From an uncultured Candidatus Saccharibacteria bacterium (GTDB taxonomy: Bacteria > Patescibacteriota > Saccharimonadia > Saccharimonadales > CAYVSP01): a DNA stretch of 64,000 bases. The notes under the pieces are model-generated. The model made no database searches. It was not told the origin of the DNA and saw nothing but the letters and a program-made list of their open reading frames with translations. Shown here one piece after another: positions 819-60,161 of this stretch. The stretch lies in assembly GCA_964584265.1 (NCBI GenBank), contig CAZOZI010000003.1, forward strand, positions 20,619 to 84,618, read 5' to 3'. The first letter of the stretch is position 1. Each line of letters begins with the position of its first letter. Position numbers and translations under genes: made by a program.

Positions 819-1724
819 ATGGATCCGTCTCTACCAAATCAAAACCTTAATGATGTTAATTCTGCCACGCGTGGTGATGTTCCTTTAGGTGCACCTGCAC
901 CGAGCACCTTCCAGCAACCTCAACCACCTGCGACTGCTCAAGTGCAAGCACCCGGTGTAGTAACTCCCGCAAAGCAGCTTGTCGCCAATCCGCGTGTCAA
1001 CCCTAATAGCACCCAAAACGCGCTGGAGATTGCTGAAATCCGTGACGGAATTGTTATCATGGAAGACGGCTCATTCCGCTGTGTTGTCATGGTCAAATCT
1101 ATCAATTTTGACCTGATGAGCCCACAAGAACGGGATGCTGTTGAGTTTAGCTACCAAGGATTCTTAAATTCACTGTACTTTCCTATTCAGATTTTTATGC
1201 GCTCGCAAAAAGTTGACTTGCAGACATACATTGGTAAGCTCGACAAAATCCGTTCCGAACATGATAATATGCTGCTCGCACTTCTGATGGACGACTATAT
1301 TACCTTCATTGACAATTTGGCTGCCCAGACCAACATTATGGACAAACGTTTTTACGTAGTTATCCCTTTCTTCCCAGTTCTTGACGCTCAACGAGCTATT
1401 ACAGCCAGCAAAAATTTGTTTACCGGCGTGTTTAGCTTGCTCAAGAATAAACAGCAACACGTCATTATTAATGAAGCCAATCTGGCCAAAGCCAAAGATG
1501 AACTACGCAATCGGGTGCAGGCAGTTTTGGGTGGACTTATGCAGTCTGGCATCCAGGGTTTGCCACTTGATACACAGGAACTGATTGAGCTGTATTATGA
1601 CACCTACAACCCAGACACCGCTACTCGTCAACAACTTAAGAATTTCGAGGATATGGCCACGCCAGTAGTCACAAAAGGCCAAGGCTCGGCAAGGCAGCCA
1701 AACCTAGATAGAGAGTTGCAGTGA
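819..1724 (+). CDS. hypothetical soluble protein of the T4SS-like cluster
   Basis: 301-aa ORF with a P/Q-rich N-terminus followed by a globular part (EIRDGIVIMEDGSFRCVVMVKSINFDLMSPQERD...). By eye this resembles the non-ATPase N-terminal region of VirB4/TraC-type proteins. No TM segment. The function is not established. Confidence 0.55.
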   Translation: MDPSLPNQNLNDVNSATRGDVPLGAPAPSTFQQPQPPATAQVQAPGVVTPAKQLVANPRVNPNSTQNALEIAEIRDGIVIMEDGSFRCVVMVKSINFDLMSPQERDAVEFSYQGFLNSLYFPIQIFMRSQKVDLQTYIGKLDKIRSEHDNMLLALLMDDYITFIDNLAAQTNIMDKRFYVVIPFFPVLDAQRAITASKNLFTGVFSLLKNKQQHVIINEANLAKAKDELRNRVQAVLGGLMQSGIQGLPLDTQELIELYYDTYNPDTATRQQLKNFEDMATPVVTKGQGSARQPNLDRELQ

Positions 1725-1761: not shown

Positions 1762-3711
1762 ATGGCACTGTTTGGTAAGAAGAAACCACAGCTTGATCCT
1801 GTTGCCATTGCACAAGCCCAACGTGCCCGCGAAGAGCAAGAAGTAAGTGCTGCTTTTCAAAAAGGTATCACAGCGCTTCGCGACTTTATTGCCCCAAGTT
1901 CGCTGGCTTTTGAAGGTTCGCATTTTCAACTAGGCACCCGCTATGCTCGCACCTACTATGTATACGGCTACCCGAGGCAGATATTTACGGGTTGGCTAAG
2001 TAGTATGATCAATCTTGATGAGGTTGTGGATTTATCTATGTTTATTTATCCCGTAGAGAGCCAGGTTGTATTAGAAAATTTGCGCAAAAAAGTAACCCAG
2101 CTAGAGGCAGGTCTGCAGATTGACGCTGAAAAAGGTCGCGTTCGTGATCCGGGTAAACAGGCTGCTATCGTAGACGCCGAAGAAATGCGCGACAAACTGC
2201 AAGTTGGCGAAGAGCGCTTTTTCCGTTTTGGCTTATATTTTACTCTTTACGCTTCATCAATGGATGAGCTGGAATTTGTTGGTCATAAGGTCGAGTCCAT
2301 CTTGGGTCAACAGCTCATATACTCCAAGCCAGCTAGTAGCCAACAAGAACAGGGCTTTAATAGCACGGTGCCGCAATTTACTGATCAGCTGCAAATCAGG
2401 CGCAATATGAACACCGGAGCACTCAGTACCAGTTTTCCATTCACGTCAGCTGATTTGACGCAGGATAATGGCATCTTATATGGCATAAACATGCATAATT
2501 CTGGATTGGTTATTTTTGACCGTTTCAGTCTGGAAAATGGTAATTCGGTCGTTTTTGCGAAATCCGGTGCCGGTAAATCATTTGCCGTAAAACTTGAAGC
2601 ACTTCGCAGCCTGATGTTTGGCACAGAAATCTTTGTGGTTGACCCAGAAAATGAGTATGAACGCATGGCGGAAGCAGTCGGTGGTGCTTATGTGCGGTTG
2701 AGCTTAAATTCGGCAACACGAATCAACCCATTTGATTTGCCAAAAGTAGTCGATACGGAGGAAGCCGACAATGCGCTGCGTAGTAATCTCATCACACTTC
2801 ATGGCCTACTCCGCCTCATGATGGGTGGCGCACAAACGCAGCTTATTGGCGGTAATGCTACGACCACACCTGCGCTAACCCCAGTTGAAGAGGCTGATTT
2901 AGATGCAGCATTGATAGACACTTATGCCAAAGCTGGTATAACCAATGATCCGCTTACGCATACCGGCATCCCACCAACCATTGCCGATCTATATGAGTCA
3001 CTGTTGCATATGGGCAACACCGGCCCCCAACTTGCTCAGAGACTACGTAAATATACAAGTGGTACGTTCGCTGGTATATTTTCCCAACAAAGCAATATTG
3101 ATATCAATAATCCATTGGTTGTTTTTAACATTAGAGACCTGGAAGATGAGTTGCGTCCAGTCGCTATGTATATTGTGCTGAACTATATATGGAACAAGAC
3201 CAAGACCGACCAGAAACGGCGGATTTTGGTGGTTGACGAGGCTTGGCAACTGATGAAATATGAAGATTCAGCTAACTTTTTGTTCTCTTTAGCCAAACGG
3301 GCTCGCAAATATAATCTCGGCATTACCACTATCACTCAGGACGTAGAAGACTTTATGGGTTCTCGCATGGGGCGCGCGATTGTTGCTAATGCCAGCATGC
3401 AACTGCTCTTGAAGCAGTCGCCCTCTGCTGTCGACATCTTAACTGATGTCTTTAAACTTACCAGTGAAGAACGCAAACGCCTTAGCAATTTTCCAATCGG
3501 GCAAGGGCTGTTCTTTGCTGGCCAGAATCATGTGCATGTGCAAATAACCGCGAGTCCAACTGAAATGAGTCTGATTACTACAAATCCAGCCCAAGTCCAG
3601 CAGTTAGCCCAATCTAGTCTGCAACCACAGCCTGGTCTGCAACCACAAGGTGAGGTCCCTCAACCGCAAGGTACAATTGATTTATCGAACAGGTTAACAC
3701 CGGGTGTCTAA
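1762..3711 (+). CDS. virB4: VirB4/TraE-like type IV secretion ATPase (Gram-positive type)
   Basis: 649 aa. The N-terminal region is typical of TraE/PrgJ-type VirB4 (YARTYYVYGYPRQIFTGWLS...). Walker A is AKSGAGKSF and Walker B is RRILVVDEAW. Q/P-rich C-terminal tail. Confidence 0.85.
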   Translation: MALFGKKKPQLDPVAIAQAQRAREEQEVSAAFQKGITALRDFIAPSSLAFEGSHFQLGTRYARTYYVYGYPRQIFTGWLSSMINLDEVVDLSMFIYPVESQVVLENLRKKVTQLEAGLQIDAEKGRVRDPGKQAAIVDAEEMRDKLQVGEERFFRFGLYFTLYASSMDELEFVGHKVESILGQQLIYSKPASSQQEQGFNSTVPQFTDQLQIRRNMNTGALSTSFPFTSADLTQDNGILYGINMHNSGLVIFDRFSLENGNSVVFAKSGAGKSFAVKLEALRSLMFGTEIFVVDPENEYERMAEAVGGAYVRLSLNSATRINPFDLPKVVDTEEADNALRSNLITLHGLLRLMMGGAQTQLIGGNATTTPALTPVEEADLDAALIDTYAKAGITNDPLTHTGIPPTIADLYESLLHMGNTGPQLAQRLRKYTSGTFAGIFSQQSNIDINNPLVVFNIRDLEDELRPVAMYIVLNYIWNKTKTDQKRRILVVDEAWQLMKYEDSANFLFSLAKRARKYNLGITTITQDVEDFMGSRMGRAIVANASMQLLLKQSPSAVDILTDVFKLTSEERKRLSNFPIGQGLFFAGQNHVHVQITASPTEMSLITTNPAQVQQLAQSSLQPQPGLQPQGEVPQPQGTIDLSNRLTPGV

Positions 3712-3752
3712 ATTGACCCAGAGTAAATGGATTTTAAGAAAAATAGCTCGCG

Positions 3753-6242
3753 TTGGCAAAGAGCTATAATACAAACAAATCAAAAGGACGTTTTGTGAGC
3801 GATGTCTACGATAAAGAATTAGAAAAGCAAGAAGAGGCTATTGCTCCGCGTGAGGCAGATGAGGAAGAACAAGGTGAACTTGACTCATTGGCCGAAAAAG
3901 GCGAAGACAAAGATGGCCAAGCTAAAGAACCAAGTGAAGGCGAAGAGAAAAAAGCCGATTATGGTGAAAGCGATAATGCTGGAGAGGCAGAGCCAAGCCT
4001 ATACAAACCAAGTAGAAGCAGATTTGGGACGGGCAGTCCTCGAGCCGCTCAACGAGTTAGGCGCACTTTGTTTATCGGTGGCCCGCTTGGCATTGTTGCC
4101 ATAATAGCCGTACTACTTATGATATTTGTCGGGCAGCTCAAAGCAGTGCATTTTGCGACCGTGCTACGTTCTGGTGGCTTTGCGACTTTTGAGCTAAGCA
4201 TGCGGCGCTTTTTCGCCGATGTCGAGTTTGATAAAACCGTTACAACCGCAGATAGCACTGGCCCGCTGGGCAATCGGCCCGACAGCAAGTTACTAAGGCG
4301 GTTAGTGACCGGCGATGATCCGCGTAGCGTGGCTCAGAAGCTGGGTCGCGAAGGTAGTCTGCAATATGTGAACGAAAACGGCGAGATAAAAGGCTTCCAG
4401 TTTGGCAGCGGAAACAGCGATATTATCAATTATGACGAAATAGCTCAGAGATTATTTACCAAAAATGCTGACCAACTAACTATAAGACAACGAATGACAT
4501 TACGAAAAAATGTGGTTGATGAAGTAAATGTGCGTATGGCTCAGCGCCTCGGAGAGGAGGGACGGTTTTTTAGAAACGATTTCTGGACGCAATTCCGTGA
4601 CATAACCGGTATCCGCATGAGTATTCCACGCCAGTTTATGAGGAGTCTTCTGGGCGAAAAACCAATTGAAGCGGAAACAAGTGTTCGACTCAATCAAGAG
4701 GAGAACATAGATGGGAGTGCAGGAGTTGACTCTGGTATAGACACAGTTAAAAAGACGACAGATGCGGTCAAGGCCGAGACTACAAACTCGATCAAGCTCG
4801 GCCAGCGCTTGCGTGACCCAACTATATACCGTACTGCCTTATCCAATGCTGGCATAAATCCTGATGTATTAACCGAAACAGTCGCTAAGGCCAGCCCCTA
4901 TGTACTGGTTGGCACGCTGTACTGCATTGGCCATGACCTTGGTGGAGTTGATCAGCGCATAAACCAGTCATTAGAAAAGCAAGCCGCGCGCTCCGCTTCA
5001 GACATACAAGTGACGAGCGAACAAATTATGGATGGCAAAAACGTAAATGCTGCCTTTGTGTCAGCGGCCAATGCTGATTACGATGGCGTCAAGGCGGCTG
5101 ATGGTAGCACGCTTATTCCCCCAGGGGAAGTTTCGCCTTACTACAAGGCCGCTACTGGCCAATCAATGAGCGGTGCTGACATGGATAGCCTTAAAGATAC
5201 TCCTTCAACTCATATTGAAACTCCGTTGGGTTACTTGGCTGATGTTGATACCATAATTAAAAATGCCATCTCTGCAGGTGCCGTTAACATACCCGGTATT
5301 GGAAAAATCATTAATAGCGGCTATGACGCCGCAATTGATAGTGCATGTGGCACAATTACTAACCCGGCTGCACAAACAGCTTTTGTATTGTTTGATGTGG
5401 CGGCCGCTGCTGCAAGTGGTGGCACAACTGCAGCCGCTACAGCCATGTTTAAGGCAGCAGTCTTTTTTGGTGGAGGTGCTTATGCCGGACAAGCTCTGCA
5501 GAGCTATGTAGAGAGTTTGTCTGGCACCGGCTTTGGGGGCGGCAAGTCGGGAGTTGACAAAGTTAATGCGGGAGGCGTATCTACAGATTACCTTAACGAG
5601 CAAAGCAATCGTGGCGTGGCAATGGGGCGGCCACTATCAAATGATGAGGCAGCCGCTACTAAAACCGCCGCTCTGATTGAAACGCACAAACAATTTCAAG
5701 ACCAGGCATGGCGCGACCGCTACTTTGCCATCAATAATCCTTACTCTCTAGTAGGCTCACTCAGCGCCTATTTCCCGTCATCGCTGGCCAGTCTTGGCAA
5801 CCGCCTAGCGGATAGTTTAAGTTCGTTACCCAAAACACTTGCCTCGTTTGTTGGTGGCCAACTAAGCGGCGGGCTAGTGCTCAATTTATTTAATGGTTCA
5901 CATCAACAAGTAGCCTATGCGGCTGACAGCGTAGACTTCCAGACCAAAGCGAACTTCTTTGGTGTGCAGCAATGGGGTTGGTCGCAAGAAGAAATAAACC
6001 AGATTGAGAGCAACCCAGACTTTGACTTTGCCAATAATGCCGCTTATGTAGAGGCTCGGCCGGACCTAGATGGGCGGTTTAGTAAGTGTTATAGCTCAAA
6101 CTCACTCTTAACTGACATTCCTTCCGGTTGTGATGCAGGTACATTGTCGCAACCCGATGCACTCCACTGGCGACTGTACAAAGTACATTCTTTTGTTGTC
6201 GACAACTTAAACCAGGATGTAACAAAAGATAATGGCAATTAA
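3753..6242 (+). CDS. large membrane protein of the T4SS-like cluster (possible VirB6/TcpH-like channel component)
   Basis: 829-aa ORF with a TTG start (a GTG a few codons downstream is an alternative). Acidic/lysine-rich N-terminus, a TM segment (LFIGGPLGIVAIIAVLLMIFVG) and a second Ala/Gly-rich hydrophobic block near residue 540. No motif I can name. The role is inferred from position only. Confidence 0.45.
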   Translation: MAKSYNTNKSKGRFVSDVYDKELEKQEEAIAPREADEEEQGELDSLAEKGEDKDGQAKEPSEGEEKKADYGESDNAGEAEPSLYKPSRSRFGTGSPRAAQRVRRTLFIGGPLGIVAIIAVLLMIFVGQLKAVHFATVLRSGGFATFELSMRRFFADVEFDKTVTTADSTGPLGNRPDSKLLRRLVTGDDPRSVAQKLGREGSLQYVNENGEIKGFQFGSGNSDIINYDEIAQRLFTKNADQLTIRQRMTLRKNVVDEVNVRMAQRLGEEGRFFRNDFWTQFRDITGIRMSIPRQFMRSLLGEKPIEAETSVRLNQEENIDGSAGVDSGIDTVKKTTDAVKAETTNSIKLGQRLRDPTIYRTALSNAGINPDVLTETVAKASPYVLVGTLYCIGHDLGGVDQRINQSLEKQAARSASDIQVTSEQIMDGKNVNAAFVSAANADYDGVKAADGSTLIPPGEVSPYYKAATGQSMSGADMDSLKDTPSTHIETPLGYLADVDTIIKNAISAGAVNIPGIGKIINSGYDAAIDSACGTITNPAAQTAFVLFDVAAAAASGGTTAAATAMFKAAVFFGGGAYAGQALQSYVESLSGTGFGGGKSGVDKVNAGGVSTDYLNEQSNRGVAMGRPLSNDEAAATKTAALIETHKQFQDQAWRDRYFAINNPYSLVGSLSAYFPSSLASLGNRLADSLSSLPKTLASFVGGQLSGGLVLNLFNGSHQQVAYAADSVDFQTKANFFGVQQWGWSQEEINQIESNPDFDFANNAAYVEARPDLDGRFSKCYSSNSLLTDIPSGCDAGTLSQPDALHWRLYKVHSFVVDNLNQDVTKDNGN

Positions 6243-8187
6243 AAAACGCCGTTACGTCAACCTCTTTAAGCGAATTCTCTATGTGTTCGGCGTGCTGTTA
6301 TTAGGTAGTTTGTTTTTAACAAAATCCGTCCTAGCAGAAGCACCATTACAGTACATTGACGGTAACTATGGTTTTTACTCGCCGGATCGGCAGACCTGCG
6401 GAAGTTCGCAAGCAAACACCACTATAAACCTTAACGACATTTCTACTAAGTACGGGTTGCACTCTGTTTTTACCAAGCAGGTGGGTGGCAATGTACTTGG
6501 CAGCGTCAACTCAGACCAATCACCCGGTTCAGTGGCTTCAGTTCTAAAACTTATCATAGCAGACGTATTCCTAAGCAAAAATCCGGATTTAACTAAAACA
6601 GTAACAGTTACTGCCCAAGAAAATTATTTTGGTGCTAGCGGTGGTGATGGATCACTGGTATCACCTAAAACTGGACAAAGTATTAGCCTAAAAGACGCGC
6701 TGGAACAAACTCTAAAATTTTCATCAGATACTAATGCTAACGTACTGATTGATGCGTCAGGCGGTCTACAGGCCGCTACCGATGCTGCACATGGTCTCGG
6801 CTACGGCAAAACTTCCATCTTGTCCTACTACAATGATGCGGGTGCCGCTACCATTGCGCCAAATGCAACAACCGTGACAGAACTTACAACTTCTATGGAA
6901 AAATATGCAACTAGCTCTGACCCTACCTACCAATCTGCTTACACTAACCTTAAAGAGGAAACAGTTAAATATGGTCTAAGCCCAGAGGCTAATAAATGGG
7001 GCGGGACGTCCAAGGTGACTGGGAATAGTGCTGTTTTTGCGGTTGGCTCGCTTCGCTACATTATTACCATGTATGTTGAGAAGGACTGGAAAGGTGATAC
7101 TAATGCAACTAATCCAGATAGTGGAGCAACGGTTATCAAAAATGCAACTAATGACATTTTGGGTTTGATTCAGGCTAACCCAAGTCAGGCCTCAACCAGC
7201 TCACAATGTTGTCAGTCCTCAACAAACATTGCTGGTTCAAATAACGCCGAGAAAGCATTCAATTATTACTTGGGCAAGGGTCTTTCGGCACTGCAGACAG
7301 CTGGGCTGGGAGGCAATCTGCAAATAGAGTCTGGGTTTGACCCTACTGCCTACTACCCGGGAGGGCATACTGATAACCCAAGCCCGAGCAGTGCTTTTGG
7401 TTTAGTCCAGTGGTTAGGAGGCAGGCAAACAGCTCTGCGTGACTTTGCTAACAGTGCCAATAAACCAATAACAGACCTCGGCGTTCAGTTAGACTTCTCG
7501 TGGCAAGAATTAACTACTTCATATAAAGATAGTGTGCTTGGTCCGTTGCAACAATCTACTGATTTGGCAAGTGCTGTGCATATTGTGAATCAATACTACG
7601 AAGGTAGTGGTGTTGATGATGGCCCACGTTTAAGTGCGGCTCAAGACCTGCTTACTAAATATGGTTCAAACACTAGCCCAACTTCTGGTACCGGCCCCGC
7701 CCCAACCAGCAGCTCCTGTGGGTCATCGGGAGTGATCGCTGGCGGGTTTGCTTTCCCGGTCGATATCCAAATTTACCATGACCACCCCGATTGGTTTACG
7801 AAGCCTCATCATGATTATCCGGCCGATGACATTCCGGTGCCAACTGGTACGGCAGTTTATTCGATTTCAGCCGGTACCATAATATCGGCACCGACCGGAG
7901 GCGATTGCGGCACGGGTGTGGAAATCGATGCCGGAAGCGGCATACATTTTATCTACTGCCACGGCGAAGATGGTGGAGCGGTGGATGGAGCTCATCAGGG
8001 GGATATAGTTACAGCTGGGCAGCTTATTATGCATACTGACAATACCGGGCATACTACTGGTCCGCACCTGCATGTTGGTATTAGAATAAACGGTACCAAC
8101 TATTGTCCTCAAACCTTTTTGGTAGGAATTGCTAACGGTTCGCCCCCCGATATAACTAAATTGCCAACTAGTGGCTGTACTTATTAA
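6232..8187 (+). CDS. secreted three-domain peptidoglycan hydrolase (class-A beta-lactamase/PBP-like serine hydrolase + lysozyme-like domain + M23 metallopeptidase)
   Basis: Signal/TM segment at the N-terminus. SxxK (SVLK), an SDN-like motif (SSDTNANVLID) and a KTG-like motif (NKWGGT) mark the first domain. GNLQIESGF...AFGLVQWLGGR is typical of phage-tail-lysozyme-type domains. The C-terminal M23 motifs are HHDYPADDIPVPTGTAVYS and GHTTGPHLHVGIR. Confidence 0.75.
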   Translation: MAIKKRRYVNLFKRILYVFGVLLLGSLFLTKSVLAEAPLQYIDGNYGFYSPDRQTCGSSQANTTINLNDISTKYGLHSVFTKQVGGNVLGSVNSDQSPGSVASVLKLIIADVFLSKNPDLTKTVTVTAQENYFGASGGDGSLVSPKTGQSISLKDALEQTLKFSSDTNANVLIDASGGLQAATDAAHGLGYGKTSILSYYNDAGAATIAPNATTVTELTTSMEKYATSSDPTYQSAYTNLKEETVKYGLSPEANKWGGTSKVTGNSAVFAVGSLRYIITMYVEKDWKGDTNATNPDSGATVIKNATNDILGLIQANPSQASTSSQCCQSSTNIAGSNNAEKAFNYYLGKGLSALQTAGLGGNLQIESGFDPTAYYPGGHTDNPSPSSAFGLVQWLGGRQTALRDFANSANKPITDLGVQLDFSWQELTTSYKDSVLGPLQQSTDLASAVHIVNQYYEGSGVDDGPRLSAAQDLLTKYGSNTSPTSGTGPAPTSSSCGSSGVIAGGFAFPVDIQIYHDHPDWFTKPHHDYPADDIPVPTGTAVYSISAGTIISAPTGGDCGTGVEIDAGSGIHFIYCHGEDGGAVDGAHQGDIVTAGQLIMHTDNTGHTTGPHLHVGIRINGTNYCPQTFLVGIANGSPPDITKLPTSGCTY

Positions 8188-8208
8188 GCGTACAGTAAGG
8201 AGGAGTAA

Positions 8209-9717
8209 ATGGAAGGATACAAGATCGTACAGTTTTTAAAGCACCATATTCGCCTCCTACTTGTATTAACACTACTATTAATAATTACATTTGTGATTAT
8301 GCGTCATGGTTTTGTGACCATTGAAGTAACTGGGTCACCTCAAGACAATAGCCCTTTCAGTTACAAACTCCTAAATCAAAGCACTCAAAAGACAACTGAG
8401 ATTAAAACTACGGCAACAAAAGTTAGAAAGCTAGTAGCTAAAGCCGATTATGAGGTTTTAGTAACAAAAAACGGTGGTAGTTCATTTTCGGTGGTCAAAT
8501 CACCAGGTTGGTTACATAGCAAACACATTAGTATTAGTTTAAAGCTCCAGAAAGCCCGCCAATTTGTGGGCGATAACCCAGCTCCGTGCATGTACTATAT
8601 TGATAAGCTGTACTCATTAGCGTGCGGTGGCACAGTGAAATCCATAAGCGTACATGTGCCCGCTAACGAGCATCAACCAACTTATGTAACAAAAAACACC
8701 CGAGGGCCGGATGGTTCGCTCGAAGCTATTGTAAAAACAACAGGCAGTAATTTTGCGATTGTTAATACAGGGCTAAACCATGCCGCATTTTCTCTTAACA
8801 ACGGATTGGCCCTTACGAATGGTGTCGTTTTGCAGGAACTTGCTAGTAATCAAACGTATTCTTTTGCAGCCTTTAAACAGGGTTTTATTGCCTACGATTC
8901 CACACTAACGAGTGTGCTGTATTTTTCTTCACCAAGCGCTAAACCAGCCACGTTTTCTCTGCAATCATCTGTCAATAACTTAAAACCATCCTTACTATCT
9001 GTTGGTGGTGACACTATTGTGGTAGTTTACTCCAATGCTGTTATCGGCGAAGACCCCAATAAGCCAAATAGTTCTGCCGTTAGAAATGAAGTCGTGATAT
9101 ATCCTGCAAAGGGAAACTCTCGAAGTTATAGACTAGATAAGAAAATTTTTACCGATGTTGAAATATGTGGTACTCAAAAACTGTGTTTCTTAAGCAATAA
9201 AGTGGTATACGTCTACGACACTAGTGTTCCTAAACCTAGGTTACTGTTTACCATACAACAAGCAAACAGTATTGACGACGTGGCTGGGCAACTCTTGATT
9301 GCACGGGACTCTGATTTACTAACTGTCGACGTGGATGCACAGCACGGCTCCGAAGCTTATAGCTTTGGTGGTTACCAGCAGTGTGGAAGCCAGAATGAGG
9401 GAAATGATTATTTGCTATGTGTCGTTAACGGTCGTTCTAAAAAAGTGGCTTTAAAACTTGACTGGGCTAATAACAACTCCGACAGTATTGACCAAAAAAT
9501 TGCCGAGCTAGAAAAACTGACTAGTATAAATAATATTTCAATTAATGGCGCATATATATTTATCTCACCGGCTGTTCCTCTTACATTCAGCCAGAGTAGC
9601 GGGCAATACACTTATGACCCTGTAGCTAAAGCAAAAGCGACTAATGAGATCGGAAACGCAATTGCTAAGATCGGAATCGATAGGAATGTTTACAAAATCA
9701 TTAATACGGTACGTTAG
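8209..9717 (+). CDS. hypothetical membrane-anchored protein (single N-terminal TM, beta-rich ectodomain)
   Basis: 502-aa ORF with SD AAGGAGGAG upstream and an N-terminal TM (LLLVLTLLLIITFVIM). No recognisable domain. Last gene of the plus-strand T4SS-like block. Confidence 0.6.
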   Translation: MEGYKIVQFLKHHIRLLLVLTLLLIITFVIMRHGFVTIEVTGSPQDNSPFSYKLLNQSTQKTTEIKTTATKVRKLVAKADYEVLVTKNGGSSFSVVKSPGWLHSKHISISLKLQKARQFVGDNPAPCMYYIDKLYSLACGGTVKSISVHVPANEHQPTYVTKNTRGPDGSLEAIVKTTGSNFAIVNTGLNHAAFSLNNGLALTNGVVLQELASNQTYSFAAFKQGFIAYDSTLTSVLYFSSPSAKPATFSLQSSVNNLKPSLLSVGGDTIVVVYSNAVIGEDPNKPNSSAVRNEVVIYPAKGNSRSYRLDKKIFTDVEICGTQKLCFLSNKVVYVYDTSVPKPRLLFTIQQANSIDDVAGQLLIARDSDLLTVDVDAQHGSEAYSFGGYQQCGSQNEGNDYLLCVVNGRSKKVALKLDWANNNSDSIDQKIAELEKLTSINNISINGAYIFISPAVPLTFSQSSGQYTYDPVAKAKATNEIGNAIAKIGIDRNVYKIINTVR

Positions 9718-15341: not shown

Positions 15342-15826
15342 TGGATGATGCTATTGTGTACGCCAAAAAGTATTTAGAAGACCTTCTTTCGTTTTTTGGG
15401 CTCAATACTGATGTGTATGCTACGACTAGCGATGATGAAGTAATTGAACTGGATGTACCAAGCACACATTTGAACGGCTTTTTAATTGGCCAGCGTGGCG
15501 AGACAATGCGCGCTTTGCAATTTATGGTCAGCAACGCACTTAAAAATAATGGATACGACATTGTCCGCGTCAATATTGATGTGGCAGAATACAAAAAAGG
15601 CAGGGCACAGCGGCTAGAACATACGGCCCAAGATTGGGTGCAACACGTTAAAACTAGCGGGGAACCAATGCATTTAAAGCCTATGCATGCTGCCGACCGT
15701 AGAACTATCCACAAGATGGCCACAGGAGCTGGGTTGAGCACTGAATCAGTTGGCGAAGGGCCTGAGCGCCATGTAGTTCTTAAACCGGACGACGACAATC
15801 AGTCTTCTGTTGATGAAGAGGAATGA
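15341..15826 (+). CDS. jag: Jag/KhpB-type RNA-binding protein (KH + R3H domains)
   Basis: 161 aa. GFLIGQRGETMRALQ is KH-like, and C-terminal AADRRTIHKMA...GEGPERHVVLKP is R3H. ATG overlaps the yidC stop (TAATG). Confidence 0.85.
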   Translation: MDDAIVYAKKYLEDLLSFFGLNTDVYATTSDDEVIELDVPSTHLNGFLIGQRGETMRALQFMVSNALKNNGYDIVRVNIDVAEYKKGRAQRLEHTAQDWVQHVKTSGEPMHLKPMHAADRRTIHKMATGAGLSTESVGEGPERHVVLKPDDDNQSSVDEEE

Positions 15827-16929
15827 GCAACGCGTTCGCCCAGAACGGCTTTATAAACATCTAGTGTTTGCCTGGCGGTTCGTTCCCACGAATAACTTTT
15901 GACGACTAAGCTACCTTTGACGACTAGTTTTTGAGCTAGCTTAGGATCAGCCAATACATCATTGATTTTTGCTGCCATGTCGCCTACGTCCAGTGGGTCA
16001 AAATAGTGTGCAGCGTCTTTGTAAATTTCGGGCAGACAGGTCGCATTGCTTGATATAACGGGGCAGCCAGCGGCCATTGCTTCAAGCCCAGGCAGACCAA
16101 ATCCCTCGCTTAAAGAGGGGAAGACATATGCCTTGGCATGTTCATACAACCATCGTAGCTCACCCTCGGTTACAAAATCAGTAAAGAAAACTCCGGGGAC
16201 CCCTTCTGCATCTACCAGCTTTTGTAGCTTACGGTAGTTGGCATCAAGCTTACCCGCCAGTACCAAAGTCAAATTAAAGTGGGTCTCTTTGAGAAGCGCA
16301 AAAGCCTCAACCAAACGCTCTAAGTTCTTATGTGAAAATGGTCGCCCTACGTACATAATGTAATCTTTGTGCTCCAGCAACTTCATAGGCTCTGGCGGCA
16401 CTGTAATTTTGTCAGCCCCCAGAAGGGTCACGGTAATTTTGCGGCTGTTAATCCGGGCAAATCTAGCTACGTCATCTTTGACGAATTGACTAAAAGTTAG
16501 TAGAGCAGTCGATTTGTGGGCCACCAGCCAATTTACGAGTTTATAGACCTGCTGTTTGAGCGTATATAGTAACCAATTCTTGCTGGGATTTCGAAAGCGC
16601 GTGGTTGTCAGGTCGTTCATGGTAGTCACTACCTTGCCGCGGTACAAAACCGGCTGCTGCACCATATCAAAATGCACTAGATCTGGCTTTAACTTATTGA
16701 GCTGACGTAGCAAGTCAATTTGCTCAGCGAAAGTAAATTCTTTATAAGGGCATTCCAGCTTTTTGAATTTCTTATTAGTTGGCGTCCAACTATCCATGTC
16801 TTTTGGCTTGAGTAGTACCGTGTAGTTGTGGGTATGGTCAATTTGCTGCAGATAATGCAGCAGGCGCTCTACATAACGCCCTGAGCTTGTTCTTAGCTCA
16901 CGCGCGTCAATCACAATTTTAGAGCTCAC
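15799..16929 (-). CDS. glycosyltransferase family 1 (GT4-type)
   Basis: FPSLSEGFGLPGLEAMAAGCPVISS motif. The track start is TTG 16935, but SD AAGGAG (16944-16939) is 9 nt from GTG 16929, so I prefer that start. The 3' end overlaps jag convergently by 28 nt. Confidence 0.85.
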   Translation of the reverse strand: MSSKIVIDARELRTSSGRYVERLLHYLQQIDHTHNYTVLLKPKDMDSWTPTNKKFKKLECPYKEFTFAEQIDLLRQLNKLKPDLVHFDMVQQPVLYRGKVVTTMNDLTTTRFRNPSKNWLLYTLKQQVYKLVNWLVAHKSTALLTFSQFVKDDVARFARINSRKITVTLLGADKITVPPEPMKLLEHKDYIMYVGRPFSHKNLERLVEAFALLKETHFNLTLVLAGKLDANYRKLQKLVDAEGVPGVFFTDFVTEGELRWLYEHAKAYVFPSLSEGFGLPGLEAMAAGCPVISSNATCLPEIYKDAAHYFDPLDVGDMAAKINDVLADPKLAQKLVVKGSLVVKSYSWERTARQTLDVYKAVLGERVAHSSSSTED

Positions 16930-17108
16930 TTCCAAGCGCTCCTTTCAGCCTCAACGATTGGATTAAGGGCCACAAAACTGATGCCGCTCGTCACCGTACA
17001 TTGCATGTACGCTTCCTCGCCTGATCTGTTTTGTGGTTCCTCCTCCAATCGCTTCGCAAGCGAAATGAGGCTTGGAAGTGAGCTCTGTGTCATATACGTA
17101 TGGTAGCA
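16921..17108 (-). promoter_or_regulatory. structured 5' leader of the GT1 gene with extended -10 promoter (TGCTACCAT) and a 17-bp start-codon-occluding helix
   Basis: AGAGCTCACTTCCAAGC (16921-37) is the perfect reverse complement of 17070-86. Nested helices are 16970-78/17028-36 (9 bp), 16995-17011 (7-bp hairpin) and 17049-63 (6-bp hairpin). TGCTACCAT lies on the minus strand at 17108-17100. Confidence 0.55.
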
Positions 17109-17159
17109 GAATTTCGCCCATCTGTTGTTTGATGCTAGAGTAAAATCAGAGGAAAACAT

Positions 17160-17957
17160 ATGGCAGAAGACACTCCCTCACCTTATGAAGCGCCACTGGA
17201 CTTACCTGGCGAGGAACAACCGTTGCGGCAGCCCACGCCGGCAAAGAAAAAGGGCCGAAGCAAGCTATTTTTAATCCTACTCGGTATTGTTTTATTAATC
17301 GTAGTGCTTGTTTTTGGGGCCATGGAGCTTTTTGGTAAAAAACCTGCGCCCAAGACGCCTGTAACTAATGGGCAATTCAGCTCAAACCCAACCATTCTTG
17401 CCCCGAACGATATTCCGAGCGTGAGCTCAACTAAAACCTTTACGGCCGAATCACTGGCAGTAACACTAACTTATCCGACAAACTGGACGGTGAGCGAAAA
17501 AGAGGGCGGCATAACCATAAAATCACCAAACTTTAATATTCAAACTAAAAACCAAGGCACACTGCCTGGCTACTTCCGGCTCTACATACGCCAGGGGGCA
17601 CGAACTGTTGACAGCAAATATATTGGCCGAGCCGTCGTGGTAAGCCCGACCGAAAAGCTGACGTACACACAACCAAACCCGAACCAGCGCAAAGACACTA
17701 ATCTATCGTTTTTCGGCTATGACACCAGCGATAACTTTGCATTCATGATGATAACCGGTAACTTTACGCTTAAAAAAGGCGATACGCTTGGCCCCAACTA
17801 TGGCAAAGAGGCGGATACCTACATTATTGCCGGTGGTTTCACCGCGGATAGCAACAAAGATGACTTAAGCTTTTATCAATTGGAATCAAATAATTTTCAG
17901 TCTTCCAGTGCCTATAAACAAGCAGTGGATATTATCAAATCACTCAAAGTTTCCTAA
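17160..17957 (+). CDS. hypothetical membrane-anchored extracytoplasmic protein
   Basis: 265 aa with SD AGAGGAAAA upstream. Proline/charged N-terminus, then one TM (LFLILLGIVLLIVVLVFGAM). No recognisable domain. Confidence 0.6.
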   Translation: MAEDTPSPYEAPLDLPGEEQPLRQPTPAKKKGRSKLFLILLGIVLLIVVLVFGAMELFGKKPAPKTPVTNGQFSSNPTILAPNDIPSVSSTKTFTAESLAVTLTYPTNWTVSEKEGGITIKSPNFNIQTKNQGTLPGYFRLYIRQGARTVDSKYIGRAVVVSPTEKLTYTQPNPNQRKDTNLSFFGYDTSDNFAFMMITGNFTLKKGDTLGPNYGKEADTYIIAGGFTADSNKDDLSFYQLESNNFQSSSAYKQAVDIIKSLKVS

Positions 17958-28637: not shown

Positions 28638-29585
28638 TCATTCAAGCTTACTTAACCTTGACTGCTGATCTTTTGAAGCTTTTAAATAATGGATCACCGC
28701 AGTCAGGATGCCCCTAGATTGCATTCTTCGTTTATAGTTAAAGTCCGGATTATCAATTTCGCTGGCGGTTTGCTCGGGCGGATGGGTATAATCAACCTTT
28801 ATACTCGAGACGGTTAAACCTTTTTTCAAAGCCGTAAGGACAGGAAAGAATAGAGTATTTGCCCATGCCTCAGTATTAACCAGAGAGTGTGTTTTTGCTT
28901 CTCCTGGCTCAAACGCATAACGCTCCATAAAAAGTTTAATTAATCCGGGCTCATTACGAATGATTCGCGGCCCCATAAACATATCTAGTTCGGGCGCATC
29001 AGGTTTTATTAAGCCGGCTATCTGCGCAAGTCGGCTGAAAAGTCTATTACTCTTTTGCTCAAATTTGGCCTGTTCTTCTGGATAGGTGGAATAGCTATAA
29101 CTGGTTCTTTCCGGGATAACAATGTCGGCTTTGCCCTCCAGGATGGGCTGCGCTACAGCTGGAATAAGGTCACGGACTAAGGATATTTTTTCGGGCTCTG
29201 TTATGCAGATAACTTCTACGCCTGTCTGGGCAGCACTTTCTCGTATAGCTTGCCGTCGAGCCCCGCTCATGTGTTTTTCTTCTTGAGCCGAAACTCGCGC
29301 ACCCAAGCTTCTTGCGGTATCAATAAAGGACTGGGTACTACCACTGTCAACGACAACAACTTGATAGCCGTTCTCTGTAGCCGCTGCTATGGTTTCAAGA
29401 GCGAGATTCCCTCTTAATTGGTCAATGTTTTCTTCGATTGTGCCACCCTGGCGCCAGATCGGATAATAGGTAATAGTCGCAATAGCTACCCTGGAAGGGT
29501 TGGATAGTACCTCTTCTGAAATACTTTGTTCTTTGGGTAAGATGTTTACTTTTTCGCTGGCGGTTGGCTCGACATTGATTGACAT
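28638..29585 (-). CDS. GT-A-fold glycosyltransferase-like protein (family unassigned)
   Basis: VAIATITYYP...YQVVVVDSGS...ICITEPEK has a Rossmann-like GT-A layout without a canonical GT2 DxD. 315 aa. Confidence 0.4.
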   Translation of the reverse strand: MSINVEPTASEKVNILPKEQSISEEVLSNPSRVAIATITYYPIWRQGGTIEENIDQLRGNLALETIAAATENGYQVVVVDSGSTQSFIDTARSLGARVSAQEEKHMSGARRQAIRESAAQTGVEVICITEPEKISLVRDLIPAVAQPILEGKADIVIPERTSYSYSTYPEEQAKFEQKSNRLFSRLAQIAGLIKPDAPELDMFMGPRIIRNEPGLIKLFMERYAFEPGEAKTHSLVNTEAWANTLFFPVLTALKKGLTVSSIKVDYTHPPEQTASEIDNPDFNYKRRMQSRGILTAVIHYLKASKDQQSRLSKLE

Positions 29586-38785: not shown

Positions 38786-39796
38786 TTATTTAGTCGTGAG
38801 CTTTTGCTGCCAGCGCCAGGTATCTTTGACAGCATCATCAATAGTTTTCTGGGTTTGCCAACCAAGTTCCTTTTCGGCTTTCTTTACAATAGCGTAGTAA
38901 GCAGCTGGATCACCGGCACGGCGGTGGCCTATTTTATATGGAACCTTGACTTTATTAACACGCTCAAATGTATTGATTAGTTCCATGACGCTAGTTGGTT
39001 GGCCTGTTCCAAGATTGTAAACAGCATAAGCGCCAGATTTTTGAACTAAATTCTGGAGCGCTGCAACATGAGCCTTGGCTAAGTCGACCACATGGACATA
39101 ATCCCGCTGACATGTTCCATCGGGCGTAGGATAGTCAGTGCCGAAGACGGTTAAAGGAGGTATTTGGCCAGTACATGCTTGTACTATTATTGGTAATAAG
39201 TTCTGAGGCTTGCCTTTTGGCAACTCACCGATTGAAGCTGAAGCGTGAGAACCAACCACGTTGAAATAACGCAGTGCAATACCCTTGAATTTTGGGTTGG
39301 CAATACAAGTGCCCTGTAAAATAATTTCATCCATACGCTTGCTCCACCCATAAGGCGAAACTGGTTCGCAGACCATATCCTCCGTAACTTTTTCGGTTGG
39401 CGGGTTGCCGTAGACAGCGGCACTGGACGAAAAAACAAAGTTATGGACTTTATGTTTCAGCAAAAATTGTAATAGCCCCACAAAACCGCTGACATTATTT
39501 TCATAATATTTAAGTGGCTGCTCAACGGATTCGGCGACGGTTTTAAAGGCAGCAATGTGAATTACGCCATCAATCTTATGCTCATCAAAAATTCTGGTCA
39601 GGAGCGTTTCGTCTTGATAATCACCTTCATAAAAAGGTATATCTACACCGACAATTTTTTTGATACCAGCCAGGACGCTTCGGTCGGAATTGCTGAGGTT
39701 ATCAATTATGACAGGTTGAAAACCAGCTTCATGCAGGGCCACCACAGTGTGTGAGCCAATAAACCCGGCGCCACCGGTTACTAGAATAATTTTCAT
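38786..39796 (-). CDS. galE: UDP-glucose 4-epimerase
   Basis: MKIILVTGGAGFIGSHT..., SPYGWSKRM (YxxxK), RDYVHVVDLA. 336 aa. Confidence 0.88.
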   Translation of the reverse strand: MKIILVTGGAGFIGSHTVVALHEAGFQPVIIDNLSNSDRSVLAGIKKIVGVDIPFYEGDYQDETLLTRIFDEHKIDGVIHIAAFKTVAESVEQPLKYYENNVSGFVGLLQFLLKHKVHNFVFSSSAAVYGNPPTEKVTEDMVCEPVSPYGWSKRMDEIILQGTCIANPKFKGIALRYFNVVGSHASASIGELPKGKPQNLLPIIVQACTGQIPPLTVFGTDYPTPDGTCQRDYVHVVDLAKAHVAALQNLVQKSGAYAVYNLGTGQPTSVMELINTFERVNKVKVPYKIGHRRAGDPAAYYAIVKKAEKELGWQTQKTIDDAVKDTWRWQQKLTTK

Positions 39797-40980
39797 ATCT
39801 TTTCCTGAATAAATGATCCCAACTTGCTGCGAAACATTTCTGGTCTGAACTGAGCGGTACTCCGGCTAATTGCGTAAGGGTCGTATTTTTTTGGATCAAA
39901 CTTCCTCAGAGCTTCAACTAGTGAACCAACTGTTAGTTGTTCAAAAAACTCACCGGTTTTGCCCGGCACTACATAATCAAGTGGTCCACCTGCTTTATAG
40001 GCAATGACTGGTGTTCCGGCGGCTATGGCCTCAACTCCTGTAATTCCAAAGTCCTCGACATTTGTCGGAAAAATAAAAGCCTCGGCTCTTTGAAAATCAA
40101 GTGGCATCTGTTCATCAGTTACGGTTGTTAGGAAAGTTACACCATGAGAACCTGCCAAGTCGCGCAACTTCTGGTGCTCAGGGCCAGTACCAATCACAGT
40201 TAAATGCTTACCAAGTTTGGCACAAGCTCTTATGGCAAGATCAAAACGTTTATAAGGAATTTGCCTTCCAGCAGTTACAAAGCCATGGCGGTCTTTCAGA
40301 GGTCCTTTTAATTTAAAACGTTCAACATCTACTGGCGGGTGTATTACAACTGCATCACGCCCATAGTATTTCTTGATTTGTTCTTTAATAAAGCTTGAAT
40401 TAGCAATCATAAAATCCGGTCGTTTAGAAGCCTTATAATCCCATTTTCTGAGAGGTGCAATTAGCAACTTAAGACCAAGCCTTGCGATTGGATCAAGCAC
40501 ACCAAAGCCGGGTGACTTAATATATTGCTCAAAGCGTCTCCAATAATAATGAGTCGGCGAGTGGCAGTAATTTATATGCAATGTGCCTTTGGGAACACGG
40601 ATGCCTTTAGCTTCCGCACTGGAACTGCTAATGACTAGATCGTAGCCCTTTAATTTGAGGCGGCTAAACCACCAAATTCTAAGCACTGGCAAAAATTTGC
40701 GCAGACTTGAAAATGGCCAGTGCTGCAAATAACCGGTCCTAACTTTACCGTCGAACTTTTTGCGTAGTTCACGGGTGCAACGTGACGTATAGATAGGTGC
40801 ATCAGGGAACATTTTGTGCAGCTCAAAGACTACTCGTTCGGCGCCGCCGCCTACTAACCAGTCATGTACAATCGCCACGCGCAAACTCCGAACCGCAGCG
40901 TCCTGCTCGCCAGTAGAACTAGCGACTCTGCCGCTGCTTTCATGTACACTACTTCGTTGCTGACTCCGCTGCTCGCTCAT
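39793..40980 (-). CDS. glycosyltransferase family 1
   Basis: VAIVHDWLVGGGAERVV... and PTNVEDFGITGVEAIAAGTPVIAY. 395 aa. Confidence 0.82.
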   Translation of the reverse strand: MSEQRSQQRSSVHESSGRVASSTGEQDAAVRSLRVAIVHDWLVGGGAERVVFELHKMFPDAPIYTSRCTRELRKKFDGKVRTGYLQHWPFSSLRKFLPVLRIWWFSRLKLKGYDLVISSSSAEAKGIRVPKGTLHINYCHSPTHYYWRRFEQYIKSPGFGVLDPIARLGLKLLIAPLRKWDYKASKRPDFMIANSSFIKEQIKKYYGRDAVVIHPPVDVERFKLKGPLKDRHGFVTAGRQIPYKRFDLAIRACAKLGKHLTVIGTGPEHQKLRDLAGSHGVTFLTTVTDEQMPLDFQRAEAFIFPTNVEDFGITGVEAIAAGTPVIAYKAGGPLDYVVPGKTGEFFEQLTVGSLVEALRKFDPKKYDPYAISRSTAQFRPEMFRSKLGSFIQEKI

Positions 40981-41064
40981 CGTACTATAGTGTACGCCTC
41001 ACTCCGCTGCTCGTCAGCGTCTTGTATTGCACATAACTTCGGAGTTTGCCTTGGGTCTTCTGCA

Positions 41065-55890: not shown

Positions 55891-55893
55891 CTC

Positions 55894-60102: not shown

Positions 60103-60161
60103 GAAGATAAAAACAATTTCCGATAAGGCTGATTGATATAGATAACCCATGGTCTAACTCC

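Follow-up and report, generated by a model that had tools for sequence, protein, structure and literature searches.

A hairpin-forming palindromic element at the start of an ancestrally leaderless glycosyltransferase gene of Saccharibacteria: a probable insertion that would bury the translation start

In an uncultured Candidatus Saccharibacteria bacterium, a palindromic element of 164–166 nt lies between the promoter and original start codon of a GT4-family glycosyltransferase gene and the remainder of its coding sequence. The reading that we favor, with a probability of roughly 60%, is that a hairpin-forming palindromic element was inserted into the start of a leaderless gene and buried its new translation start, leaving GT4 output silenced, coupled to an upstream open reading frame (uORF) and/or dependent on RNase III. 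The locus would then be a clean natural experiment, in which an insertion turned a leaderless gene into a leadered one: the new Shine-Dalgarno (SD) sequence and start codon would be derived from the element and locked in its hairpin, while the old leaderless AUG would survive as the start of the uORF. The features of the locus are collected in Table 1, in which positions refer to the whole stretch of DNA analyzed (64,000 nucleotides, hereafter the window).

Table 1. Features of the GT4 locus and related structured elements in the window.
Feature	Position	Strand	Remarks
GT4-family glycosyltransferase gene, 376 aa	15799..16929	-	GUG start, NCBI annotation (P0001)
Whole-length imperfect palindrome, family-1 element e	16921..17086	-	Based on fold; missing at 7 orthologous loci; homologous copy L026
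Proximal (3′) arm of 17-bp repeat	16921..16937	-	Holds UUG 16935, GUG start 16929-16927, uORF stop UGA 16928-16926
Distal (5′) arm of 17-bp repeat	17070..17086	-	Begins 7 nt past retained ATG
55-codon uORF	16926..17093	-	From retained ancestral ATG 17093-17091 through entire element; UGA overlaps GT4 GUG (GUGA)
SD-like AAGGAG	16939..16944	-	9 nt upstream of GUG; within element
TTGAGGCTG motif	16946..16954	-	Identical in L026 copy, equal spacing (30-31 nt past GACGAGC)
Apex module GCGAGGAAG-CGTACAT-GCA-ATGTACG-GTGACGAGC	16986..17020	-	7-bp apical hairpin 16995-17011
Promoter motif AATTCTGCTACCAT, conserved	17100..17113	-	Extended -10 TGCTACCAT at 17108-17100; 6 nt upstream of ATG 17093
Extended -10-like TGCTAGAGT of divergent 265-aa membrane-protein gene (17160-17957)	17133..17141	+	Outside element, unaffected
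Family-2 Y-shaped element, ~155-175 nt	43921-44096 and 40949-41028		Also in L095, L096, L065

The initial annotation of this DNA, made from the sequence alone, drew attention to a pair of 17-bp exact reverse complements, AGAGCTCACTTCCAAGC and its partner, separated by 132 nt, and both arms are present where it placed them. Its estimate that such a repeat should arise by chance well under once per window agrees with an analytic expectation of about 7e-4 per window; AGAGCTCACTTCCAAGC with up to three mismatches has just two matches in the 64 kb, and two or more matches occurred in none of 100 shuffles. When the whole window was scanned, the pair was the top inverted repeat with a spacing below 300 nt, and the perfect 17-bp repeat is far above chance. 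The same region is found with 100% identity in an independent Logan assembly (L062, SRR9179562), so that the palindrome is not an artefact of metagenomic assembly. The two 17-bp arms form the outer stem of an imperfect palindrome of 166 nt, whose homology with a second copy described below indicates that the element proper probably spans 16922-17085 (GAGCTCAC...GTGAGCTC), flanked by CA (17087-17086) and TA (16921-16920). An element of this size has no coding capacity for a transposase, and only two frames are open through it, namely the 55-codon uORF and one frame on the plus strand, both without homologues.

The minus-strand RNA of 16900-17110 reaches -95.1 kcal/mol (z = -8.5), compared with -84.1 kcal/mol (z = -7.5) for the plus strand, and the palindrome RNA on the minus strand has a predicted fold energy of about -90 to -95 kcal/mol. 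The initial annotation had pictured a 17-bp clamp around separate local helices, a picture that gives way to a single imperfect palindrome over the whole 166 nt, the interior by itself folding at -55 kcal/mol (z = -5.5). Of the nested helices that it listed, those of 9 bp and 7 bp are part of the minimum free energy (MFE) structure but the UCGCUU/AAGCGA helix is not, and the GGAGGAGGA tract, said to be unpaired, is nearly all paired. The base of the MFE hairpin consists of 20 consecutive pairs and its overall shape is that of a near-continuous rod without an obvious ligand pocket; G-U pairs show no strand bias in the window copy (2 vs. 2).

As had been noted, AAGGAG ends 1 nt before the proximal arm and the UUG and GUG codons fall inside it. 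The proposal that the start codon is occluded is supported by the model: the GT4 GUG has an unpaired probability of about 0, and the predicted opening energy at the GT4 start is 28.2 kcal/mol vs. 4.6–18.0 kcal/mol at 35 other gene starts of the window. AAGGAG is largely paired as well: four of its positions have unpaired probabilities below 0.02, another has 0.29 and the remaining one about 1.0. The predicted hairpin would thus hide both the SD and the GUG start of GT4.

The origin of this arrangement is clarified by seven orthologous loci, whose GT4 products are 76–82% identical and none of which contains the palindrome. In the orthologues, 23–73 nt separate GT4 from the same divergent membrane-protein gene, vs. 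230 nt in the window, and in all seven a -10-like element (TGCTACCAT or a variant) lies 6–9 nt upstream of the GT4 ATG or GTG, without an SD; its form is TGNTAnCAT in six and TACAAT in the seventh. The initial annotation had called TGCTACCAT a promoter element, and the occurrence of AATTCTGCTACCAT or a close variant at the orthologous loci backs that call. In the window, the -10 element situated 6 nt before ATG 17093 forms a layout of the leaderless type, as judged from sequence features only, and the same closeness of -10 and start codon recurs at many other genes of the window. A sigma-70 and terminator scan returned no canonical -35/-10 promoter, no terminator at the hairpin and no U-run after it on either strand. 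Since coding homology restarts at AAAATTGTGATTGAC, directly past the palindrome, and the orthologous loci are empty and leaderless, the palindrome is best read as an insertion specific to this lineage, placed between the ancestral ATG (17093) and approximately codon 3, and GT4 as an ancestrally leaderless gene. The exact length of the insert is constrained by the frame: only deletions of 3n+2 nt (158, 161, 164 or 167 nt) restore ATG 17093 in frame, whereas removing 164 nt together with a TA leaves it out of frame, and the target duplication is imperfect (CA/TA).

These loci also bear on the proposal made in the initial annotation that the structure evolved as a cis-regulatory leader, i.e., a riboswitch, an RNA thermometer or a protein-operated gate controlling GT4 translation. 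The occlusion predicted by the model and the high significance of the fold are what would be expected of such a leader. However, the hairpin is present in none of the seven orthologous leaders, all of which are leaderless (an absence that the initial annotation had itself named as refuting), Rfam offers no match at E<=10, the rod has no obvious pocket for a ligand, and a homologue sits in a context that is not a leader. Opening the SD-to-start region is computed to cost 33 kcal/mol at 25 °C, 28 at 37 °C, 25 at 45 °C and still 14 at 75 °C, which makes the helix too strong to melt in the physiological range as a thermometer must. The comparison with orthologues has largely refuted the evolved-leader reading, which we regard as very improbable.

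The second copy of the element lies in a related Saccharimonadales genome (L026/L095), in which a homologous palindrome of 165–169 nt occupies a different site, inserted directly 3′ of the stop codon of a neighboring membrane-protein gene and antisense to both flanking genes. Its flanks, TA|GAACTC...GAGTTC|TA, compare with CA|GAGCTC...GAGCTC|TA in the window; the TA...TA flanks of the L026 copy restore the TAG stop codon of its host gene. The termini are related (AGAGCTCAcTT vs. AGAACTCAtTT), the terminal repeat being 25 bp long and 96% identical in L026 vs. 17 bp and perfect in the window. Both copies have asymmetric motifs in common, in equal order and at equal spacing, and the apex module is the segment best conserved between them. 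Their alignment scores 16.5 vs. -17.4 ± 5.3 for shuffles (maximum 2.5 in 1000) and is good in one relative orientation only. The interval corresponding to the L026 site could not accommodate the element in the window, L024, L028, and L063, where it measures about 50–60 nt past the membrane-protein gene or the genes overlap, so presence and absence differ between relatives at both sites. On this comparison, the two palindromes are to be regarded as a small dispersed palindromic family (family 1) resembling the Correia, ERIC and MITE elements.

The family has two known members, one per genome. The initial annotation had stated that copies elsewhere would make the repeat a MITE; a homologous palindrome was indeed found at another site of a related genome, but the 64-kb window has no second copy. 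No further copy was detected in the rest of the window, by a search that included a sliding MFE scan, or in about 190 kb of related DNA. The coverage amounts to one copy in 64 kb, about 6% of an assumed genome of about 1 Mb, a size typical of Saccharibacteria, and one copy in the 21 kb of L095, and multiple copies per genome were not seen. The 10-nt terminus does not recur in the window above chance and no insertion sequence with matching ends was found there, nor did any of the about 57 window ORFs scanned have a Pfam match to a transposase, recombinase or invertase, about a dozen of them having no Pfam match at all.

Perfect 17-bp inverted repeats around 132 bp next to glycan genes could also be the recombination sites of a phase-variable inverton beside a surface-glycan locus. 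Flipping the segment would place the uORF stop about 58 nt before the GUG, and inversion could thus toggle coupling. Such a switch has no need of an interior that is itself palindromic, however, and the promoter lies outside the repeats, a single orientation is seen in both assemblies, no invertase occurs among the ORFs scanned in the 64 kb, and the element is missing in relatives. We consider an inverton extremely unlikely.

Separate from the palindromes, a second family of structured elements (family 2), supported by covariation, is represented by two copies in the window and by members in related sequences (Table 1). Paired alignment cells amount to 91% in this family vs. 75.5% in shuffles (0/500 as high), 13 pairs are compensatory, and the outer stems vary. 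Family 2 has no match in Rfam. As a covariation-supported, Rfam-unmatched family found in several Saccharimonadales genomes, it is possibly the more valuable lead.

Several observations could suggest that the window palindrome is a functional structured RNA of a wider family that takes in both families 1 and 2, and that it was co-opted as a translational gate for GT4 under control in trans. In both family-1 copies the unpaired positions oppose purine to purine on one strand, the homologous one in each case (21/22 purine-purine vs. pyrimidine-pyrimidine), and this strand folds 11–25 kcal/mol better than its complement; the bias hints at a constraint at the RNA level, for which a plain DNA transposon would have no use. 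Across all six elements of families 1 and 2 examined, the more stable strand is likewise the homologous one, and five of the six are sense to the downstream gene. An apex motif, C[GA]TAC-loop-GTACGNTGA, is common to both families, local alignment of family-1 element e with family-2 element a gives z = 4.9 in the same orientation only, and the covariation of family 2 is strong. Against a functional RNA stand the seven orthologous GT4 leaders that lack the element, the antisense placement of the second family-1 copy relative to both neighbors, the lack of an Rfam family, and the fact that two palindromes are expected to show “compensatory” changes by construction. Moreover, the family-2 covariance model R1 scores only about 8 bits on family-1 elements e and f (ranks 4th of 14 and 10th of 17), i.e., background. 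Because R1 fails to separate family 1 from background, homology of the two families is not claimed. We judge recruitment as a functional RNA gate to be unlikely. Still more doubtful is the extended proposal that both families form one undescribed superfamily of dispersed, strand-specific RNA modules of Saccharimonadales with a protein-bound apex, the GT4 copy being a factor-operated gate. Under this superfamily reading, an apical hairpin, GAGG-CGUAC-loop-GUACG-NUGA, set in purine-rich internal loops may bind a trans-acting protein, and the modules may have been recruited repeatedly into the leaders of envelope-glycan and replication genes.

Database searches returned no described relative of the element. 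At gathering thresholds, Rfam 15 gave no match in the window and, at E<=10, only two chance-level matches in 16700-17300; ARAGORN predicted neither tRNA nor tmRNA. The exact 17-mer had 23 single matches in unrelated phyla among GTDB representatives, a set that excludes the source genome, which is about the chance level. The termini, as the pattern ACTTCCAAGC-N117-147-GCTTGGAAGT (10+10 nt), matched 31 loci in JGI metagenomes, none of them related by interior and one of them an unrelated MITE family with the same 10-mer by chance. In viral contigs, neither the termini pattern nor the core pattern was matched, and the 28 matches to CCACAAAAC...GTTTTGTGG were all unrelated; blastn against phage and plasmid collections gave no match. 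A comparison of the uORF peptide with 1.84 billion representatives yielded only one spurious repeat protein (P0121), and the open plus-strand frame had no word-sharing candidate. Identities as 6S RNA, SRP RNA, a hammerhead-like core, an attC site, a retron msd or an IS200/IS605 end were considered and rejected on account of the lack of Rfam signal, the wrong architecture or motif spacing, and the lack of a nearby reverse transcriptase, TnpB or integrase.

Insertion of a hairpin-forming palindrome, the reading favored here, would have acted on GT4 as follows. An element of about 164–166 nt would have entered the leaderless gene just behind its start codon, ahead of about the third codon. The old promoter would then transcribe the element, yielding an mRNA that starts at the old AUG and runs through the palindrome. 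By computation, this transcript folds into a hairpin (about -90 kcal/mol) in which the replacement start, AAGGAG-N9-GUG, is buried; both parts of that start come from the 3′ end of the element. The hairpin would be a by-product of the structure of the element rather than a sensor. Only two routes to GT4 would then be left. On the one hand, the 55-codon uORF could be translated by ribosomes that start at the leaderless AUG; these would unwind the hairpin on their way and re-initiate at the GUGA junction. On the other hand, RNase III could cut the perfect stem of about 20 bp, for which it is a plausible substrate on the modeled structure, and free the 3′ arm. The rnc gene is absent from the 64-kb window and is kept in at least 90% of CPR genomes (PMC12641178). 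If neither route operates, GT4 would be strongly down-regulated. Reduced, uORF-coupled expression is the outcome that we favor, although the uORF frame is open in 18% of interior shuffles, which makes it weak evidence alone and leaves coupling without statistical support.

The same shuffles are compatible with an insertion that is simply a disabling or neutral mutation, GT4 being effectively off and the uORF/GUGA geometry coincidental. With 28 kcal/mol needed to open it, the start would allow no independent initiation; the window holds many further GT4 and GT2 genes, and the 17-bp arms, being perfect, point to a recent event. The GT4 ORF is fully intact, full-length against its homologues and with conserved termini, but if the event is recent this says little. 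Also against a disabled gene stand the SD at ideal spacing and the GUG that the element brings, the left flank CA (a TA would give ATG ACA TAG and close the uORF) and the occurrence of the same allele in two assemblies. On balance, a disabled GT4 seems rather unlikely. The locus yields testable predictions on coupling through the uORF, on processing by RNase III and on initiation without a leader, in a phylum whose genetics is only now becoming possible, and it warns that, where striking 5′ hairpins adjoin glycan loci, orthologues should be checked before a riboswitch is called.

Neisseria, enterobacteria, pneumococci, and Rickettsia are all well known to carry small, mobile palindromic repeats by which 5′ regions are remodeled; none was found described in the literature for Saccharibacteria or the CPR. 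The proposed behavior of the GT4 start recalls uORF-coupled systems, such as AUGA/GUGA junctions and the ermC leader peptide, in that a start codon lies in a long-range helix, a uORF crosses this helix, and its stop overlaps the start. It differs from them in that the uORF is leaderless and would be an accidental product of the insertion, the coupling being putative. With the MITEs of the IS630/Tc1-mariner type, which duplicate TA, the element has in common its small non-coding nature, terminal inverted repeats, the TA...TA flanks of L026 and its occurrence at two sites in two genomes; it is set apart by the failure to find a cognate transposase, by the CA...TA flanks in the window and by its strand-specific purine mismatches.

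The Correia elements of Neisseria (CREE/NEMIS) are similar in architecture; no sequence similarity to them is known. They are of comparable size (153–157 bp vs. 164–166 bp here), have terminal inverted repeats and TA/CA flanks, and vary in presence and absence among related genomes. Correia termini are flanked by TA and occasionally by CA (PMC2649163), and a CREE can sit between a native promoter and its gene and thus form a hairpin in the mRNA, the mtrCDE CREE being cut by RNase III (PMC2649163, PMC10969869). On the other side, CREE reach 100–250 copies per genome vs. the two copies in two genomes known here, and the present element is palindromic over its full length and lies within the first codons of a leaderless ORF, to which it supplies an SD and a start codon. 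Whole-length imperfect palindromes of about 100–170 bp are found in the ERIC/IRU elements of enterobacteria and in the Rickettsia palindromic elements (RPE), transcribed copies of which affect the fate of mRNA (PMC10969869). The likeness is again one of architecture: these repeats sit in transcribed regions or ORFs, reduced genomes included. ERIC differs by its 30–700 copies per genome. RPE are inserted in frame and translated as part of the host protein, whereas the insert described here, of 3n+2 or 3n+1 nt, breaks the frame of GT4 and thereby forces a new start.

The 17-bp inverted repeat reported by the initial annotation at the start of the GT4 glycosyltransferase gene is exact, its arms (16921-16937 and 17070-17086) being perfect reverse complements with a 132-nt spacer. 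These arms are the sole matches to the 17-mer in the window at ≤3 mismatches (0/100 shuffles reach 2 matches) and form the strongest inverted repeat in all 64 kb among arms <300 nt apart; as had been estimated, chance is a poor explanation, a perfect 17-bp pair within 200 nt being expected ~7e-4 times per window. The two arms make up just the basal stem of a single imperfect palindrome that spans 16921-17086 and is centered at ~17003. Folding energies for 16900-17110 are -95.1 kcal/mol (z = -8.5) for minus-strand RNA and -84.1 kcal/mol (z = -7.5) for the plus strand; the 132-nt interior taken by itself reaches -55 kcal/mol (z = -5.5). The palindrome is not a MAG artefact, since L062, the Logan assembly of run SRR9179562, matches the region at 100% across 429 aligned bases. 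The annotated SD, UUG/GUG codons and -10 element are correctly placed, and the NCBI protein for the GT4 gene (P0001, 376 aa) begins at GUG 16929. Two details of the annotated structure were not recovered: the GGAGGAGGA tract, described as unpaired, is paired in the MFE, which also does not use the UCGCUU/AAGCGA helix.

Seven orthologous loci, retrieved via GT4 homologues 76-82% identical, are organized differently. In all seven, 23-73 nt separate the GT4 gene from the divergent membrane-protein gene, vs 230 nt in the window, and a -10-like element lies 6-9 nt 5' of an ATG or GTG that has no SD (identical AATTCTGCTACCAT in three; TGATACCAT, TGTTACCAT or TGCTAACAT in three; TACAAT in one), which, judged by sequence, is a leaderless arrangement. 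The proposal of a riboswitch or thermosensor, which called for conservation in orthologous leaders, founders on these seven short, leaderless loci. The window itself carries the identical AATTCTGCTACCAT (17113-17100), followed by 6 nt, an ATG (17093), 4 nt and the palindrome, directly 3' of which AAAATTGTGATTGAC encodes K-I-V-I-D, aligning with the relatives' N-termini M-(K/T/S)-(K/H)-I-V-I-D. The palindrome, with AATTCTGCTACCAT and the ATG before it and the K-I-V-I-D homology after it, is thus an insertion between the ancestral start codon and approximately codon 3. The insertion boundaries are approximate, the orthologous loci compared being without a close enough empty site; joining ATG 17093 to the GT4 frame requires the removal of 3n+2 nt, e.g., 158 (leaving AGAGCTCT), 164 or 167. 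Although the GT4 ORF remains intact, the insertion could be a recent event.

Many other window genes have TGnTAnnnT or TATAAT 6-10 nt 5' of the start codon and no SD (e.g., 5' of 53507, 54565, 28638-29585 (-), 63057-63617 (-) and 46740), and others have clear GGAG-type SDs. Since both occur among window genes, both modes appear native to the genome, and this survey suggests that leaderless mRNAs are frequent in this Saccharimonadales genome.

An inverted-repeat scan of the relatives found a 169-nt palindrome in L026 (GCA_964410205.1), with 25-nt arms that are 96% complementary and a plus strand that folds at -107.2 kcal/mol (z = -12.3). Its global alignment with the window palindrome scores 16.5, vs -17.4 ± 5.3 in palindrome-preserving shuffles (maximum 2.5 of 1000), and holds in one relative orientation only (-5.5 in the other). 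The termini are related (AGAGCTCAcTT in the window, AGAACTCAtTT in L026); further common features are GCGAGGAAGCGTAC and GCAAGGAGGCATAC, GTACGGTGACGAGC and GTACGTTGACGAGC, and, after another 30-31 nt, an identical TTGAGGCTG, whereas the internal stems diverge yet stay paired (e.g., CCACAAAAC/GTTTTGTGG vs CCAGCTGGC/GCCAGCTGG). The L026 copy lies directly 3' of the stop codon of the orthologous membrane-protein gene with flanks TA...TA, the duplicated TA and the element's first G restoring a TAG stop; the flanks of the window copy are CA...TA. At the place matching the L026 site, the window and the related loci L024, L028 and L063 have a gap of only ~50-60 nt or overlapping genes, and by this comparison the L026 copy is a lineage-specific insertion too.

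The initial annotation took multiple copies elsewhere in the genome as the mark of a MITE: a homologue does occupy another site in the related L026, but the window yielded no second copy. Nor was a further copy of this family (family 1) found in ~190 kb of related DNA, in GTDB representatives searched with the 17-mer, in JGI metagenomes searched with the 10+10-nt termini, in viral contigs, phages and plasmids, or by peptide searches with the element's open frames. JGI metagenome contigs did yield a MITE-like family (140-164 nt; clearly multi-copy; long terminal repeats TCCATAGCAACTACTTCCAAGCTAAAT...), but it is unrelated and surfaced solely through the 10-mer ACTTCCAAGC that it has in common with the window element. 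Transposase or recombinase domains had no match among the window ORFs scanned.

In both family-1 copies, a start codon faces outward at the same position of the 3' terminal repeat. Any suitably oriented insertion could thus bring in a start codon with the element end, although this may be a simple consequence of the terminal sequence CA(C/T).

Coordinates of the main features (window coordinates unless a locus is named)
Feature	Location	Strand	Score (bits)	Context
GT4 glycosyltransferase gene	15799-16929	-		divergent from 265-aa membrane-protein gene
Membrane-protein gene, 265 aa	17160-17957			then GDP-mannose dehydratase, then ~23-kb glycan locus
Outward start codon, window copy	16921-16929	-		GTG AGC TCT
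Outward start codon, L026 copy	L026 2127-2141	+		ATG AGT TCT
Family-2 copy	L095 (= L026) 17192-17271, full element 17167-17338		97.6	rpmH-dnaA spacer
Family-2 copy, arm only	40949-41028	-	94.4	leader of GT4 gene 39793-40980
Family-2 copy	43942-44020, full ~43921-44096	+	89.1	between wzy-like and lexA-like gene
Family-2 copy	L096 16641-16720, full about 16619-16792		75.7	after dnaN
Family-2 copy	L065 1440-1518, full about 1380-1535	-	47.5	after jag
Unrelated MITE-like family	L031, L033, L034, L042, L043, L045, L047, L050, L052, L057, L058			Ga0209780, Ga0209363, Ga0049094, Ga0066187

Across both family-1 copies, non-Watson-Crick positions comprise 21 purine-purine vs 1 pyrimidine-pyrimidine on the same homologous strand, which when folded is more stable than its complement by 11-25 kcal/mol and is GT4 sense in the window and antisense to both neighbors in L026. 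Such a purine-purine bias is not expected of a decaying DNA palindrome and would allow for a constraint acting on the single strand, whether RNA or ssDNA.

On a modelled mRNA starting at 17093, the annotated occlusion of the start codon is upheld, the GUG being paired with probability ~1 and most of the SD paired as well. Freeing the SD-to-+15 region at 37°C takes 28.2 kcal/mol, vs 4.6-18.0 for 35 other window gene starts, and ribosomes should hardly ever initiate independently at the GUG; even at 75°C, 14 kcal/mol is needed, which makes a thermometer implausible. From the retained leaderless AUG, a 55-codon uORF crosses the entire element up to a UGA that overlaps the GUG (GUGA), AAGGAG lying 9 nt before the GUG, and ribosomes translating this uORF would melt the hairpin and could re-initiate at the GUG. 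The geometry is only weakly non-random, as 18% of interior shuffles also keep the frame open and the prior for the frame relation is 1 in 3. A canonical TA left flank would give the uORF ATG ACA TAG; the observed CA yields the codon CAG and would fit selection for an open uORF. Alternatively, RNase III could cut the 5' arm away and leave the start accessible: the hairpin base, 20 consecutive base pairs in the predicted fold, would be a textbook substrate of this enzyme, whose gene rnc is kept by at least 90% of CPR genomes (PMC12641178).

A motif search seeded from the family-1 apex led to a different, Y-shaped element of ~155-175 nt (family 2), of which R1, a covariance model of the 80-nt arm, finds five copies (47-98 bits) at loci that differ from genome to genome. 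Covariation is strong: 91% of cells are paired vs 75.5% in shuffles (0/500), the arm has 13 pairs with compensatory changes (slid controls are 17-43% paired), and the full-length consensus has 59 pairs, 33 with compensatory changes, its outer stems being unrelated in sequence and always pairing. Family 2 has no Rfam match and no copy in 21 kb from a fourth relative, and may be an undescribed ncRNA or mobile structured element. Its conserved apex, GAGG-CGTAC-loop-GTACG-NTGA, resembles that of family 1, and local alignment to a family-2 element gives, in the same orientation only, z = 4.9 for the window palindrome and 3.2 for the L026 copy; R1 scores family-1 elements at background level, and the link between the families is suggestive, not established. 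In the GT4 gene 39793-40980 (-), the mechanical ORF start, ATG 40980, adds ~35 N-terminal residues (MSEQRSQQRSSVHESS...) before the usual RVAIVHDW, and this extension (region 40880-40980) overlaps the family-2 arm; translation probably starts ~100 nt further downstream, and the arm would then fall in a leader or inter-cistronic spacer. The L095 element adjoins DnaA-box-like sequences TTATCCACG and TTGTCCACA (flanks 17350-17420), which would place it inside or beside the presumptive oriC.

The window, which the names on homologues assign to a Saccharimonadales (Saccharibacteria, CPR) genome, also adjoins a replication-origin cluster: recF, dnaN and dnaA (-), then rnpA, yidC and jag/khpB (+). 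Upstream of these genes, a cluster at 1762-9717 (+) encodes a TraG/VirB4-like P-loop ATPase (1762-3711) and, at 6232-8187, a 651-aa protein with beta-lactamase-like, phage-tail-lysozyme and M23 peptidase domains; the cluster, flanked by large ORFs without Pfam match, may specify a type IV-like apparatus for secretion or attack. Elsewhere, a 110-nt direct repeat (55893-56002 and 60161-60270 (+), 93% identical, 4.3 kb apart) takes in a promoter-like motif, CTGCTACAAT, together with the 5' ends of a pair of paralogs without Pfam match (55929-56951 and 60197-61234).

The window element is MITE-like and only a candidate for the MITEs in the strict sense, membership of which would turn on copy number, target duplication and a cognate transposase. 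It is unusual in having apparently converted a leaderless gene into one led by a uORF and a hairpin, and in its CPR host lineage, for which the literature seems to be without a description of such elements. We rate it as a small palindromic dispersed repeat remodelling a 5' region, a kind already known. ERIC and RPE palindromes are near analogues (PMC2649163; PMC10969869), and the closest are Correia elements, which are of the same size class, have inverted repeats and TA flanks with occasional CA (PMC2649163), insert between promoter and gene, and form an mRNA hairpin that is cut by RNase III (PMC2649163; PMC10969869).
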